From the sequence record PZ452591.1: DNA of 64,000 nucleotides. The stretch is one strand, 5' to 3'. Below are positions 40,705 through 48,144 of the stretch, piece after piece. Made by a program: the position numbers and the translations under genes. This stretch comes from a phage. Position 1 is the first letter of the stretch. Every line of letters begins with the position of its first letter. A model generated the notes under the pieces. It had not been told where the DNA came from. It did not search any database and saw only the letters and a list, made by a program, of their open reading frames with translations.

Positions 40705-41883
40705 TTAAAAGTATTTTTTAAAACTCATCATAACTTTATCATCAACATCATTATCAATCTGTGCAACAAGGTAGGATGACAGTTCTACTTCTTGTGGTGC
40801 GGATTGAACATTATCAGAATTAAGATATTCACGAATCCAAGGATATGGATGTTTAACCGGAGCATCGGTAATTGGGCATGGAAGACCACACTGTTTCATA
40901 CGAGATACAGTTAAGTAATCAATAAAGCTCCACATGCTATTTGTATTTAATCCAGGAACATCGCCATCTTTAAATAAATGAACTGCCCAATCTTTTTCTT
41001 GGCGATTAACTTCCATGAAAATATCAACTGCTTCTTGTTCACACTCTTGAGCAATTTTAACCCATTCATCGCCATCAGTGCCAAGTTGAAGTTGACGAAT
41101 AATATATTGAGTGCCTTTAAGATGAAGCTGCTCATCACGAGCAATGAACTTCATAATCTTGGCATTACCTTCCATGATTTCCATGTTCTTATGGAAGTTA
41201 AAGGTACATGCAAAAGATACATAAAAACGAATAGCTTCTAAGGCATTAATAACGTGCAAACAGAGGTAAAGAGACTTCATTAAAGCACGTTTAGCTTCGG
41301 CTTCTTGTTTAATAGCTCGGTTTAAACGAAAGTCGGCATCAGGAGATTCTTTAGCTAGTTCTACAAATTCTTTAGCATTTTCCCATTCACGGGTTTTAGT
41401 CAGAACATCATCATAATAACGTCCAATTGATTCAGCACGTTTCATAATAGCTTCATCTAATACAATCTCATCAAATACCTTCGATGGATCAGTATAAAGA
41501 TTTCGCATGATATGAGTATATGAACGACTGTGAATAGTTTCACTAAAAGTCCATGTAGCAACCCATGTATCAAGACTTGGGTCTGAAATTAATGACATAA
41601 GTACAGCAGATGGCGCACGACCCTGAATGCTATCCAAAAGTGATTGATACTTCAGGTTGTTAGTAAAAATATTTTGCTGATATTGAGGAAGCTTATTAAA
41701 CTGTGCAGCATCCATCATTAAGTTTACTTCTTCGGGACGCCAGAAAAATGATAAGGACTTCTCTGTAAGTTCTTCAAATACTCGATGCCGTTGAATATCA
41801 TAACGCGCAATACCAAGACCTGAACCAAAAAACATAGGTTCTTTTAAAACATCAACTGGATTTGTATTAAAAACTGTGCTCAT
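40705..41883 (-). CDS. nrdB: Ribonucleotide reductase class Ia small subunit (392 aa), uninterrupted
   Basis: Ferritin-like di-iron protein; continuous ORF, no intron. Confidence 0.93.
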   Translation of the reverse strand: MSTVFNTNPVDVLKEPMFFGSGLGIARYDIQRHRVFEELTEKSLSFFWRPEEVNLMMDAAQFNKLPQYQQNIFTNNLKYQSLLDSIQGRAPSAVLMSLISDPSLDTWVATWTFSETIHSRSYTHIMRNLYTDPSKVFDEIVLDEAIMKRAESIGRYYDDVLTKTREWENAKEFVELAKESPDADFRLNRAIKQEAEAKRALMKSLYLCLHVINALEAIRFYVSFACTFNFHKNMEIMEGNAKIMKFIARDEQLHLKGTQYIIRQLQLGTDGDEWVKIAQECEQEAVDIFMEVNRQEKDWAVHLFKDGDVPGLNTNSMWSFIDYLTVSRMKQCGLPCPITDAPVKHPYPWIREYLNSDNVQSAPQEVELSSYLVAQIDNDVDDKVMMSFKKYF

Positions 41884-41934: not shown

Positions 41935-44199
41935 TCATAATTTACAGGATGAACAATCTTCAGCTTTTGGAGTTTCTATTTCATAATCATCAGTACCAGA
42001 ACCATCACGGGTATTATGATAATAGAAATTTTTAATGCCATAATACCATCCGTATAGCATGTCATCAATCATTATTGACATTGGAACCTTTCCTTTTGGA
42101 AAAATCTGCGGGTCATAGTATGTATTCGCTGAAGCTGATTGACATACCCATTTCAGCATAATAGCTACCTGTGTAAGATAAGGTTTATTACCTTTCTTAG
42201 CTAATTTCCATGTATAATCATAGAGGTCTATGTTATGCTCAATATTGGGCACGACTTGATTAAAGGAGCCCTCTTTTGATTCTTTAACAGAGACTGGTCC
42301 ACGTGGAGGCTCGATACCGTTTGTACTGTTAGAAACTTGGGAAGATGACTCACATGGCATAAGTGCTGATAATGTGCTATTACGGATGCCAAAGAGCTTA
42401 AGGTCTTCCCGCAGCGACGACCAGTCACAAACGTATTTTGGAGCTGCGATTTGGTCAATCTTTTTATTGTACCAGTCGATAGGTAATTCGCCTCGAGACC
42501 AACGAGTGTCTGAATAATATTCGCAAGGTCCTTTTTCTTTGGCGAGCTTAATGGATGCTTTAATGAGTCCATACTGTAATCTCTCAAATAGTTCATGTGT
42601 TAAATCGTTAGCATCTTCATAAGAAGCAAAGTTACTTGCCAGCCAAGCTGCATAGTTGGTAACACCTACACCGAGGTTACGACGCTTTTTAGCTTTTTCT
42701 GCTTCAGGAACTGGATATCCTTGGTAATCCAAAAGATTATCAAGAGCACGAACTTGAACTTCTGCCAATTCATTAATTTTATCTTGGTCTTGCCAGTCAA
42801 AATTATCTAGTACGAATGCAGATAACGTGCACAAGCCAATTTCAGCATCGGGGCTATTCACATCATTTGTTGGAATAGCAATTTCACAACATAAGTTACT
42901 CTGACGAATAGGTGCCTTTTCACGAATAAACGGAGTATAGTTATTCGTATTATCAATGAACTGTACATAAATCCTTGCTGTTCCTGAACGTTCAGTCATG
43001 AGCAATTCAAATAGTTCACGGGCTTTAATACGCTTTTTACGAATATTAGGGTCTTTTTCTGCTGCTTCGTATAATTCACGGAAACGGTCTTGGTCTTTAA
43101 AATAAGAATAATAAAGTTCTCCACCCATTTCATGCGGACTGAACAAAGTGATGTAATCGTTCTTTCCGAATCGTTCCATCATCAAATCATTCAGCTGAAC
43201 ACCATAATCCATATGACGAATGCGGTTTTCTTCTACACCTTTGTTATTTTTCAAAACGAGAAGATTTTCAACTTCCAAATGCCAAATAGGATAATAAGCA
43301 GTAGCAGCGCCGCCACGAATTCCACCCTGTGAGCATGATTTAACAGCAGTCTGAAAATGTTTCCAAAAAGGAATAACACCAGTATGGCGTACTTCACCCA
43401 TGCCAATCTTAGAACCTTCGGCGCGAATCATACCAACGTTAATACCAATTCCAGCGCGTTTAGAGATATATTCAACAATTGAAGCAGAAGCCTTATTGAT
43501 AGACTTCAATGAATCTCCTGCCTCAATAACAACACATGAACTAAACTGTCGAGTCGGAGTACGGCAACCAGCCATAATAGGAGTTGGCAGTGAAATCTGT
43601 CGAGTAGATACTGCTTCATAAAAACGAATAACATGTTTTAATCTATCAACAGGTTCATCTTGATGCAATGCCATTCCAATAGTCATAAATGCAAACTGTG
43701 GAGTTTCATAAATTTGACCAGTGGTTTTATCTTTAACTAGATATTTTTCTTTCAATTGCATCGCCCCGGAATAAGTAAATTCCATATCCCGCTCGTGTTT
43801 AATTTTTGATTCTAAAAATGTAATTTCTTCTGCTGAATATTTTGACAATAATTCAGGGTCATATTTACCTTCATTTACACAGTAAGAAATATGGTCAATA
43901 AATGAACGTGGTTCATACTGCCCATAAACATGCTTACGAAGAGCAAACATTAAACAACGTGCAGCTACATATTGATAATCAGGTTCTTCAACCGAAATAG
44001 AATTCGCAGCAGCCTTAATGACAATAGTCTGAATGTCATCAGTTGTCATTCCATCACGGAGATATGATTTAATATTTTCATATAATTCATAAGGATCTAC
44101 TGATGTTCCCTCAGATGCCCAAGATAAAACTTTAATAATTTTTTGTGGGTCAAAGCTCTGAGAAACACCACTACTTTTGATAACATTAATTAATTGCAT
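41935..44199 (-). CDS. nrdA: Ribonucleotide reductase class Ia large subunit (754 aa)
   Basis: 754 aa as in T4 NrdA; C-terminal CSSC redox pair. Confidence 0.95.
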   Translation of the reverse strand: MQLINVIKSSGVSQSFDPQKIIKVLSWASEGTSVDPYELYENIKSYLRDGMTTDDIQTIVIKAAANSISVEEPDYQYVAARCLMFALRKHVYGQYEPRSFIDHISYCVNEGKYDPELLSKYSAEEITFLESKIKHERDMEFTYSGAMQLKEKYLVKDKTTGQIYETPQFAFMTIGMALHQDEPVDRLKHVIRFYEAVSTRQISLPTPIMAGCRTPTRQFSSCVVIEAGDSLKSINKASASIVEYISKRAGIGINVGMIRAEGSKIGMGEVRHTGVIPFWKHFQTAVKSCSQGGIRGGAATAYYPIWHLEVENLLVLKNNKGVEENRIRHMDYGVQLNDLMMERFGKNDYITLFSPHEMGGELYYSYFKDQDRFRELYEAAEKDPNIRKKRIKARELFELLMTERSGTARIYVQFIDNTNNYTPFIREKAPIRQSNLCCEIAIPTNDVNSPDAEIGLCTLSAFVLDNFDWQDQDKINELAEVQVRALDNLLDYQGYPVPEAEKAKKRRNLGVGVTNYAAWLASNFASYEDANDLTHELFERLQYGLIKASIKLAKEKGPCEYYSDTRWSRGELPIDWYNKKIDQIAAPKYVCDWSSLREDLKLFGIRNSTLSALMPCESSSQVSNSTNGIEPPRGPVSVKESKEGSFNQVVPNIEHNIDLYDYTWKLAKKGNKPYLTQVAIMLKWVCQSASANTYYDPQIFPKGKVPMSIMIDDMLYGWYYGIKNFYYHNTRDGSGTDDYEIETPKAEDCSSCKL

Positions 44200-44516
44200 A
44201 AGTCCTCAACTTGAAAATCGTCTTTAAACAATCGGTTAACTATATGAGCTATTATATCACCATGACACGGCTTTGGTTTACATGTGCATCCTAGCCTCAT
44301 TCCACGTAAAGGCTCTAAATGTGCTTTAGTTATTTCTCCGGATTTAATTCGACGTATAAAATCTTTTTTGAATAATTCAATGGCAGCCTCCCGGCTGCCA
44401 GCATCTTTACCGACGTAATTTCCCCAAAATGTACCACGGTGAATATTAACATCAAAGTCGGATTTATATTTATTCACTACCCGACATAGACGGCCCGCGC
44501 GGTGATAATTCGGCAT
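44190..44516 (-). CDS. Hypothetical protein with CxC...CHGD motif (positional equivalent of T4 nrdA.1), 108 aa
   Basis: ORF; motif [12 protein letters not shown]. Confidence 0.65.
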
Positions 44517-44733
44517 ATTGTTTTTCCGTTAAAACAGTAATATCGTAGTAACAGTCAGAAGAAGTTTTAACTGTGGAAATTTTATTATCAAAATACTCAC
44601 GAGTCATTTTATGAGTATAATATTTTTTACCATAAATGATAATAGGCTGATTTGGTCCTGGAACTTCTAGCTCACTTGGATTAGGAAGTGTAAAAAGAAC
44701 TACACCAGAAGTATCTTTAAATCGTAAAATCAT
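44470..44733 (-). CDS. Hypothetical protein, about 87 aa from first ATG
   Basis: ORF-track start TTG; ATG at codon 5. Confidence 0.55.
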
Positions 44734-44756
44734 ATATCCTCGCAATTAAATTGAAA

Positions 44757-45617
44757 TTACACCGCCATCTTTCCTTTAATTGGCGGGTGAGATACATAGT
44801 TGTTAAGAACAAAATTATGCGGCTTTGCGAATTGACTCAACCAAAATACCTGCGATTCTGTGTCCCATTCATCAAATTCATCTGGAAATTTTAATTGCAA
44901 TTCGCATAAATCCATAGGTTCACGACGCAAAATTTCTTTACATTGTTCTACGTGATTCATATAGATATGAGTATTACCACCAGAAAATATCAAATCTCCA
45001 GGAATAAGATTACACATCTTAGCTACAATATGAACTAACGTAGCATATGATGCAATATTAAATGGAAGACCGAGGAAAACATCTACCGAACGTTGATACC
45101 ACTGCAAATCCAAATAGCCATTACGCACATTAAACTGATAGAACATATGACAAGGCGGTAATGCCATATATTTAAGTTCAGCTGGATTCCATGCAGAAAC
45201 AATTTGACGCCTATCATTTGGCAATTTTTTAATACGATCAACAACTTCTATAATTTGGTCTACACCGCCAAAATCGCGCCATTGTTTTCCATAAATTGGA
45301 CCAAGTTCACCGCTATGGTATCCTAAATCTTTTGCTTGATTTTCGTAATTTTCATCCCAGACTGTTTTGCCTTGAATTAATGAATCATGTTGAATTAATC
45401 GTAAATCATTGACATTTGTGCTTCCCGATAAAAACCATATTAGCTCAGCAATGCAAGCTTTCCAGGCGAGCTTCTTAGTTGTTACTGCAGGAAAACCTTT
45501 AGTTAAATCCCAGCGTAATTTAGTACCGAACAAAGCAATTGTTCCTGTGCCCGTTCGGTCATCGGTTTCATAGCCATTTTCAAAAATGTCTTTAATTAAA
45601 TCTTGGTATTGTTTCAT
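44757..45617 (-). CDS. td: Thymidylate synthase (286 aa), uninterrupted
   Basis: Matches T4 Td across full length as a single continuous ORF (no group I intron, no I-TevI ORF). Confidence 0.95.
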   Translation of the reverse strand: MKQYQDLIKDIFENGYETDDRTGTGTIALFGTKLRWDLTKGFPAVTTKKLAWKACIAELIWFLSGSTNVNDLRLIQHDSLIQGKTVWDENYENQAKDLGYHSGELGPIYGKQWRDFGGVDQIIEVVDRIKKLPNDRRQIVSAWNPAELKYMALPPCHMFYQFNVRNGYLDLQWYQRSVDVFLGLPFNIASYATLVHIVAKMCNLIPGDLIFSGGNTHIYMNHVEQCKEILRREPMDLCELQLKFPDEFDEWDTESQVFWLSQFAKPHNFVLNNYVSHPPIKGKMAV

Positions 45618-45662
45618 TTAGTACCTTATATAAATTATAATACATTTTATGAAGCTAAATAA

Positions 45663-46010
45663 TCAATACGGTTTAGCATCAAATTTTCTCTCAATTTCAG
45701 GCGTGAAATATAATTCTTTACCGCGTTTGGAAAAGCGACCAATAATATGATAATTATTCTCATCAAACGTAATATTACCAATATCCATAGCTTTCAACCA
45801 AATATCGATATTTCTATCCAGCTTTATGTCAAAATTCCAATACGGAGAACTATTACCGAAAATACTGCAAGCGGATTCAGTGAAACAGCTACTATAAATC
45901 TTGTCTTTAGGAACTACTAATTGATAGACACCTTTAATAAACTGAGGACCCTGCCACTTTGGCTGTTTCGCGTCTTCTTCTAATAGAATAGGGTAATAAT
46001 TAAAATTCAT
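45663..46010 (-). CDS. Hypothetical protein, about 115 aa, lying between frd and td
   Basis: ORF-track start GTG; first ATG at 46010; not expected at the T4 frd-td junction. Confidence 0.55.
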   Translation of the reverse strand: MNFNYYPILLEEDAKQPKWQGPQFIKGVYQLVVPKDKIYSSCFTESACSIFGNSSPYWNFDIKLDRNIDIWLKAMDIGNITFDENNYHIIGRFSKRGKELYFTPEIERKFDAKPY

Positions 46011-46030
46011 ATTTTCCGTCACGCGTTATT

Positions 46031-46859
<829 letters not shown>

Positions 46860-47169: not shown

Positions 47170-47397
47170 TTATTTTTGGATTAAGCCCATATAAAATTTA
47201 GCATCTTCAGGATACATGCCATCACAATACTCATTGGTCATAAAACTAATAAGGTCTTCAAGAGGACCTTGGACCTCAATTTGAATACTAAAGAATTGGG
47301 TATCTTTAATGTAAGCCATACTCAAAGAAGGATAACGATTGCGGATAACTTCGTAAGTGTATTCAAAATCAACAATATCAATATTAACCTTAGCCAT
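47170..47397 (-). CDS. Small protein paralog A (about 75 aa from [13 protein letters not shown]...)
   Basis: ATG preceded by GAGGAAA; paralogous to ORF at 47880..48107. Confidence 0.7.
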
Positions 47398-47419
47398 TTT
47401 ATTTTCCTCATGTAGTTGA

Positions 47420-47457
47420 TAGGGTAATAGTATCACACTACTACCCTACTGTAAACT
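47420..47457 (-). promoter_or_regulatory. Early-promoter-like element upstream of small paralog A
   Basis: GTTTAC - 17 bp - TGATACTAT. Confidence 0.5.
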
Positions 47458-47879: not shown

Positions 47880-48107
47880 TTACTGTTCAATAAATCCTGT
47901 GTAAAATTCTACATCTTCAGCATCCATACCGTCGCAGTATTCATTAACCATAAACTGTTTAAGACGATTTAAAGGACCTTCAATAACAACTGAAACATTA
48001 CAATTAGGATCATTTAGTGCGCTTATGATACTAAGTTCAGGATAACGATTACGAATAATTTCTTCAATATATTCAAAATCAACAACATCAATATCAATTT
48101 TAGCCAT
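47880..48107 (-). CDS. Small protein paralog B (about 75 aa from [13 protein letters not shown]...)
   Basis: ATG preceded by AGAGGAAA; shares EYCDGM and FY.G.I motifs with paralog A. Confidence 0.7.
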
Positions 48108-48144
48108 ATTATTTTCCTCTTTAATCATCAGCAGTATTGCCGAT

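Follow-up and report, generated by a model that had tools for sequence, protein, structure and literature searches.

In phage T4 the genes for dihydrofolate reductase (DHFR; frd) and thymidylate synthase (TS; td) overlap, and the question raised here is how a further small gene comes to lie between them in another phage genome. The stretch analysed, hereafter the window, comprises 64,000 nucleotides (nt) of phage sequence record PZ452591.1, and the gene in question, termed X (X, X2 and Y are labels coined here for the small genes of the frd–td interval), occupies 45663..46010 on the minus strand, where it runs from an ATG at 46010 to a stop at 45663 and encodes 115 amino acids (aa). A first-pass annotation had described an open reading frame (ORF) of about this length between the two enzymes, and it is indeed present; the named neighbours proved correct as well, with frd upstream (46031..46612, minus strand) matching Pfam DHFR_1 (E = 2.9e-19) and phrog_316, and td downstream (44757..45617, minus strand) matching Thymidylat_synt over its full length (E = 3e-94). 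The same annotation took X for an insertion into an operon junction that is normally tightly coupled. Our overall reading, which we consider highly probable when its parts on the gene, its evolution and its protein are taken together, is instead that X is a genuine accessory gene, and that the T-even frd–td interval can hold as many as three small genes, X being the first in order.

X has the properties of a protein-coding gene under constraint. Compared with the copy in phage F2 (88% nucleotide identity), it shows 31 synonymous and 9 non-synonymous differences, corresponding to a ratio of non-synonymous to synonymous substitution rates (dN/dS) of 0.04, and compared with the copy in phage Lutter the ratio is 0.085; X is thus under strong purifying selection. 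A dN/dS of 0.52 for frd against F2 was discarded because the F2 gene is not of the same length and, with no gaps allowed, the two sequences may have been compared out of register. The codon-adaptation score of X, referenced to the 42 long ORFs of the window, is 0.658, as against 0.670 ± 0.039 for the long genes and 0.46 and 0.51 for the off-frames of X; its codon usage is native and matches that of its neighbours, so that a check proposed in the first-pass annotation favours a resident gene. The protein also matches the phrog_1928 profile end to end (E = 9.3e-36, 123 bits, residues 8–115 of a 119-aa form against positions 2–125/126), and an identical 115-aa sequence has already been deposited from many Tequatrovirus genomes as a ‘hypothetical protein’. 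Since conservation of the protein spans several phage genera, X is, to judge by these comparisons, a real, conserved small gene that is already catalogued. That it might be a chance open frame in a non-coding spacer would fit with its having no known domain and with its being left unannotated in the T2 RefSeq record and a few others, but the dN/dS of 0.04, the residues that are invariant across genera, a confident structure model and codon usage specific to the X frame leave this reading with practically no credence. A scan of the region against Rfam gave no family, the lone match (E = 0.27) being attributable to chance.

The reading frame can be extended upstream to a GTG at 46022, giving a longer form (45663..46022, minus strand, 119 aa), and the internal ATG at 46010 gives the 115-aa product MNFNYYPILLEEDAKQPKWQGPQFIKGVYQLVVPKD. 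The in-frame GTG would add four residues and is not conserved as a start; since homologues in other phages (F2, L010 and P0001/P0003) begin at the methionine encoded by ATG 46010, this codon is taken as the likely start of X. The gene so delimited begins 20 nt past the frd stop, ends 45 nt ahead of the td ATG and is the sole ORF in the frd–td segment of the window.

Its distribution bears directly on whether X is an addition. A 701-nt probe across the junction matched 570 phage records, of which 353 cover at least 80% of the probe, and tblastn placed the X protein at ≥90% identity in 363 records, including T2, T6, RB7, RB27 and RB33; RB10, AR1 and wV7 were matched by the junction DNA probe. 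Homologues below 60% identity by tblastn occur in a further 218 records, from phages of Klebsiella, Enterobacter, Serratia, Edwardsiella, Salmonella and others. Diverged homologues (26–48% identity) immediately follow frd in Jiaodavirus, Kanagawavirus, Winklervirus, Marfavirus and others, often with X2, a paralogue, and Y, an unrelated 68-aa gene, between them and td, and an annotated homologue occupies this place in Jiaodavirus JD18, Kanagawavirus Q7622, Winklervirus CHI14 and Marfavirus R3_1. On this distribution the window is ordinary at the frd–td junction, and X is carried by most T-even phages. The first-pass annotation was therefore right that the gene is extra relative to T4, and its description of an insertion into a normally coupled junction did not hold up, given that X is found at 90–100% identity in T2, T6 and about 350 others.

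Synteny is equally consistent. Across a survey of 20 loci, made up of the window, GenBank phages, one metagenomic contig and 13 IMG/VR contigs and representing at least six Tevenvirinae lineages, the order frd, X, (X2), (Y), td on one strand was found in every locus; T4-like references thus commonly carry homologues at this position, the very observation that the first-pass annotation had named as counting against its reading. Over all the junctions considered, within and beyond this survey, the interval took the forms frd-X-X2-Y-td, frd-X-X2-td and frd-X-td, and also frd-Y-td and frd-td. By hhalign comparison (probability 95%, E = 2e-8) X2 is paralogous to X, and both share the motifs Q-K-x-W and G-R-F-x-K-x-G. 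Each phage record has one place for X, always in the frd–td interval, and no X paralogue was found elsewhere in the window or in the 136–148 kb region of T4. In Marfavirus R3_1, L010, L016, L017 and L019, X, X2 and Y occur together, with neighbours joined by overlapping stop and start codons. The simplest reading would be that a multi-gene frd–td interval is ancestral and that different lineages retained different subsets of it. One apparent departure, the 195-aa protein P0012 (record OR941409.1, L011 4001..4588), ends in the final ~35 residues of a JD18-type X, preceded by an unrelated N-terminal part; td and nrdA are in fragments around it and small genes are duplicated, so that OR941409.1 looks like a scrambled or mis-assembled phage genome, and for that reason P0012 was not treated as a real fusion.

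Within Tequatrovirus the junction exists as three alleles. The X allele, the state of the window, is present in about 353–363 records. The Y allele is a 206-base-pair (bp) segment that codes for Y alone and is found in fPS-65, SA21RB, IME537 and others, with Y at ≥95% identity in about 134 records. Y is a 68-aa gene (MSNKLKVKDVPNAMALF), located at 767..973 of L007 (Yersinia phage fPS-65), 3148..3354 of L005 and 4670..4879 of L010, and its homologues in Phapecoctavirus phages have ~43% identity; in some records it is mislabelled ‘flagellar biosynthesis protein’. Y uses the same slot as X and co-occurs with X and X2 in the five multi-gene loci named above, but it is unrelated to X in sequence and is overlap-coupled on both sides, through ATGA at the frd end and TAATG at the td end. 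The third, empty allele was sought with a 43-nt probe built so that only an uninterrupted frd–td junction can seed a match, and 32 records were recovered, 31 of them at 100% identity. About half are T4 itself, its laboratory derivatives or partial T4 sequences, and the others are RB55, RB59, vB_EcoM_112, HY03, SG1, G28, F1, FN, JEP6, FL12, FL18 and G2133, some of which appear twice as RefSeq duplicates. The T4 frd–td overlap is a rare, minority state. Because T4-type and Y-type phages do without it, X is evidently dispensable, at least in laboratory hosts.

The relation between the window and T4 is simple at the nucleotide level. In T4 (NC_000866) frd occupies 145109..145690 and td starts at 145112, so that the genes share a 4-nt ATGA and nothing lies between them, as the first-pass annotation had stated for the overlap; it was reportedly first described by Purohit and Mathews (J Biol Chem, 1984). 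Aligned with the window, T4 lacks exactly 417 bp, in one clean block that comprises X and the X–td spacer, and the flanks are nearly identical (94.7–96% over the adjoining 150–300 nt). A 9-bp direct repeat, TAAATGAAA, marks the two ends of the block, and T4 has a single copy of it. In the window the left copy (46029..46037, minus strand) includes the frd stop TGA at 46031..46033 and an ATG at 46032..46034, and the right copy (45612..45620, minus strand), 417 bp away, includes the td start codon at 45615..45617. Coding for frd or td fixes seven bases in the left copy and six in the right, out of nine in each, which makes the repeat only partly independent evidence. The ATG in the left copy opens a three-codon mini-ORF, ATG AAA TAA (46026..46034, minus strand), which overlaps the frd stop and whose first two codons are those of td; it looks like a fossil td start.

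Most likely, the 417-bp block was lost in the T4 lineage by deletion, a direction favoured because X is common at this junction across T-even lineages and the empty state is rare. The td 5′ flank of T4 also has 94.7% identity to the X-allele window and 90.7% to a Y-allele phage, which gives mild support to descent of the empty allele from the X allele. A repeat-bounded gap of this kind is what loss between the short repeats, by slippage or microhomology-mediated recombination, would be expected to leave. The converse, that X is a recent moron-like or mobile insertion into an ancestrally coupled ATGA junction, would account for several features of the locus: a direct repeat flanking the 417-bp difference resembles a target-site duplication, X in the window has its own spacer and a weak ribosome-binding site, and a promoter-like element follows it. 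The left repeat moreover keeps the first two codons of td and then a stop, as if a T4-like junction had been split, and this weighs against deletion since it can be read as what is left of an empty junction that existed earlier and was then re-filled. However, F2 has the same left-junction structure although it has diverged from the window at dS 0.77, so any re-filling would predate the deepest splits of the genus and X would not be a recent insertion. That divergence of X from the F2 copy is of the same order as that of td (pS 0.48 for X and 0.71 for td), which makes X old within the genus, and the same family lies directly after frd in at least six genera at 26–48% identity. Nor does the segment behave as a mobile element: it has no mobility gene, nuclease or transposase features and is present as a single copy per genome at a fixed site, the codon usage of X is native, and it is the empty allele that is rare and nearly clonal. 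We therefore regard a recent insertion as improbable and deletion from an X-bearing ancestor as the better account of the T4 state.

The organization of the window also suggests how X would be expressed. A weak Shine–Dalgarno-like GGAA (46014..46017, minus strand), 4–7 nt upstream of ATG 46010, is a putative ribosome-binding site for X. In other genera the end of frd and the start of X share 4–20 nt, and the last gene of the interval overlaps the td start; unlike in those genera, X in the window does not appear to be translationally coupled to frd, and both couplings seem to be broken. X would be transcribed with the early or middle frd operon and translated from its own weak ribosome-binding site. 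The 45-nt X–td spacer (45618..45662, minus strand) contains a promoter-like TATAAT after TTTAGCTTCA and an AAGG ribosome-binding site for td. Such a spacer is present in T2/T6-type phages, and that of Lutter is near-identical and has a promoter annotated in the record; it is absent from F2, where 13 nt separate X from td. A generic sigma-70 scan gave one 9/12 match in the spacer (45666..45637), and the regional counts from the generic promoter and terminator scan were not above shuffled expectation. We treat the promoter-like element as a lead to a td promoter and no further, on which td would have gained its own spacer carrying such an element. A separate observation concerns F2 (L008 1330..1420), where extra A residues in an A-run at the end of frd (TATATAAAAATGAAAT, versus TATATAAATGAAAT in the window) remove the frd stop and lengthen frd by 12 codons, so that it overlaps the start of X; homopolymer length here alters gene coupling.

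What the protein does is a more tentative matter. As the first-pass annotation had stated, it carries no recognisable motif: no known domain was found in Pfam, NCBIfam, PADLOC (no match at E ≤ 1) or PDB sequences with either single-protein or profile queries, and word-index searches with profiles returned no annotated relatives. A HMMER search of 1.84 billion representatives gave 41 clusters at 50% identity, nearly all of 95–140 aa and free of Pfam domains, and on these searches the X family is restricted to T4-like phages. Three long HMMER matches (899, 1766 and 1216 aa) were set aside as spurious, being Ig-like, HYR and PA14 proteins rich in repeats, in which the matches fall on short repeated stretches.

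An AlphaFold2 model built from a 12-sequence alignment has a mean pLDDT of 80 and a pTM of 0.76, with residues 40–60 at pLDDT 62. It comprises strands at 6–12, 27–34 and 62–64, a helix at 68–77, and strands at 80–82, 86–96 and 99–104, and this predicted secondary-structure order, b1-b2-b3-helix-b4-b5, is the canonical one of the OB-fold. Structural matches were weak and nearly all to OB domains; none of the solved OB-fold domains showed significant similarity to the model. Over 42 X and X2 sequences, W19, G91, K95 and G97 are invariant and Q16, G27, Y29, F93 and F102 nearly so. In the window protein these residues form a Q-x-x-W motif near the N-terminus (Q16, W19) and a G-R/H-F-x-K-x-G motif in the C-terminal hairpin (G91, F93, K95, G97). 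Mapped on the model, the former would sit in the loop between strands 1 and 2 and the latter in the strand 4–5 hairpin, which is the usual binding face of OB domains. No conserved Asp, Glu, His or Cys was found in the X/X2 alignments.

On these features we favour, though at less than an even chance, the reading that X is a small non-enzymatic OB-fold-like beta-barrel whose conserved aromatic and basic residues would form a face for binding a partner protein or single-stranded nucleic acid. X would then help the phage module for nucleotide supply and replication, in a role that can be dispensed with. Several points weigh against this assignment. The isoelectric point of family members ranges from 6.6 to 9.4 and is not uniformly basic, as that of a nucleic-acid binder might be; a literature search returned no expression, interaction or phenotype data on the X ORF (a bNACHT11 preprint that mentions T2 proved irrelevant to X); and genes of T4-like genomes are generally packed tightly and coupled through ATGA, which makes co-location with frd and td soft functional evidence.

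We caution against the labels that the X ORF bears in public records. It is called a ‘putative homing endonuclease’ in the BASEL phages MZ501067, MZ501113 and MZ501050, and a free-standing homing endonuclease or its remnant would suit both the presence/absence polymorphism of the locus and a T4 region rich in homing elements (I-TevI, mobE, I-TevIII and segG). Yet searches of Pfam, PHROGs and NCBIfam turned up no nuclease domain, be it GIY-YIG, HNH, LAGLIDADG, PD-(D/E)xK or another, the alignments have no conserved acidic, His or Cys residues or Tyr-Gly motifs, and 115 aa is too small in comparison with known free-standing enzymes. The fold matches are OB-like rather than nuclease-like, and purifying selection together with a fixed position across genera is unlike the behaviour of selfish homing genes. 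The same ORF is elsewhere labelled ‘glucose-1-phosphate adenylyltransferase’ or ‘dihydrofolate reductase’, and such contradictory labels show that these annotations are unreliable, propagated guesses; that X is a homing endonuclease or its remnant is a very remote possibility.

The main functional rival to an OB-like binding protein is that X acts in anti-defence or host takeover, for example as an inhibitor of host immunity or of a nucleotide-depletion system. X is small, non-enzymatic in appearance, dispensable and located in an early or middle gene region; its family is limited to the 41 clusters from T4-like phages; and its presence varies between closely related phages, in which the junction takes three alternative forms, a pattern typical of T-even accessory counter-defence genes. 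It has no similarity to any named family, although the negative PADLOC result says little because PADLOC covers defence systems and not anti-defence proteins. Counter-defence genes also tend to move and swap, and it would be unusual for one to stay in strict synteny with frd and td across such large evolutionary distances. We judge this role unlikely but well worth keeping in view.

A stronger form of the OB-like proposal, to which we give slightly less weight than to anti-defence, is that X and X2 form an unrecognised, highly diverged OB-fold family that works physically with phage DHFR and TS. The proteins could tether the enzymes that synthesise deoxynucleoside triphosphates (dNTPs) to single-stranded DNA or to gp32 at the fork, or could bridge DHFR and TS for folate channelling. 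Such a partnership, if true, would explain why X is locked between frd and td throughout the T-even subfamily, and T4 may compensate for the loss by direct frd–td coupling.

The neighbouring loci differ from T4 in other ways. The td gene of the window is an uninterrupted 286 codons with neither the group I intron nor I-TevI, unlike that of T4; since the intron is present in other X-allele phages (Lutter and IMG/VR locus L012), its occurrence is independent of that of X. The nrdB gene (40705..41883, minus strand) is likewise an uninterrupted ORF of 392 codons, 51 nt from nrdA (41935..44199, minus strand), and the T4 nrdB intron with I-TevIII, nrdB.1 and the homing endonuclease gene mobE are apparently absent from the window phage. 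Upstream of frd, two small ORFs (47170..47436 and 47880..48128, both minus strand) are evident paralogues of each other and look like a duplicated Frd.3-type gene, of which T4 lists a single frd.3. Homologues of nrdA.1 (DUF4326-type) and nrdA.2 lie at 44190..44516 and 44470..44745 (minus strand), between td and nrdA as in T4, and variability is thus confined to the frd–td and frd-upstream intervals.

At this junction it is T4, the textbook reference, that is the exception, T2, T6 and most T-even phages carrying one to three small genes, and scans calibrated on T4 will flag the genes of the interval as ‘extra’. The three-allele junction, with a clean 417-bp deletion apparently lying between 9-bp repeats, is a tidy example of accessory gene loss in T-even phages. 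X is already known as a hypothetical protein in phrog_1928, and what remains of interest is its conserved position and its possibly OB-like fold; as a conserved and selected family fixed beside two enzymes of nucleotide metabolism, it is a modest candidate for follow-up in work on the T4 dNTP-synthesising complex and on T-even accessory genes.

Set against known systems, the window protein is a member of phrog_1928 like AWM12104.1 of Escherichia phage 107 and UniRef A0A482GHT2, from which nothing separates it. Its likeness to OB-fold domains such as those of RPA14/32, bacterial SSB, Teb1 and S1 proteins lies in the predicted order of elements and in the conserved aromatic and basic positions, but it is a likeness by model and the charge of X is not consistently basic. 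The window shares with the T4 frd/td overlap the same flanking genes and the same ATGA motif at the frd stop, but its ATG opens the three-codon mini-ORF, whereas that of T4 opens td. At the level of genome organization there is a parallel with the variable clusters of small ORFs in T4-related genomes that Comeau and Krisch and Petrov et al. (2010) are said to have termed ‘hyperplastic regions’: there, as in the frd–td interval, small genes between core genes differ among close relatives, but X is more conserved than the typical content of such regions and is fixed next to frd across many genera.
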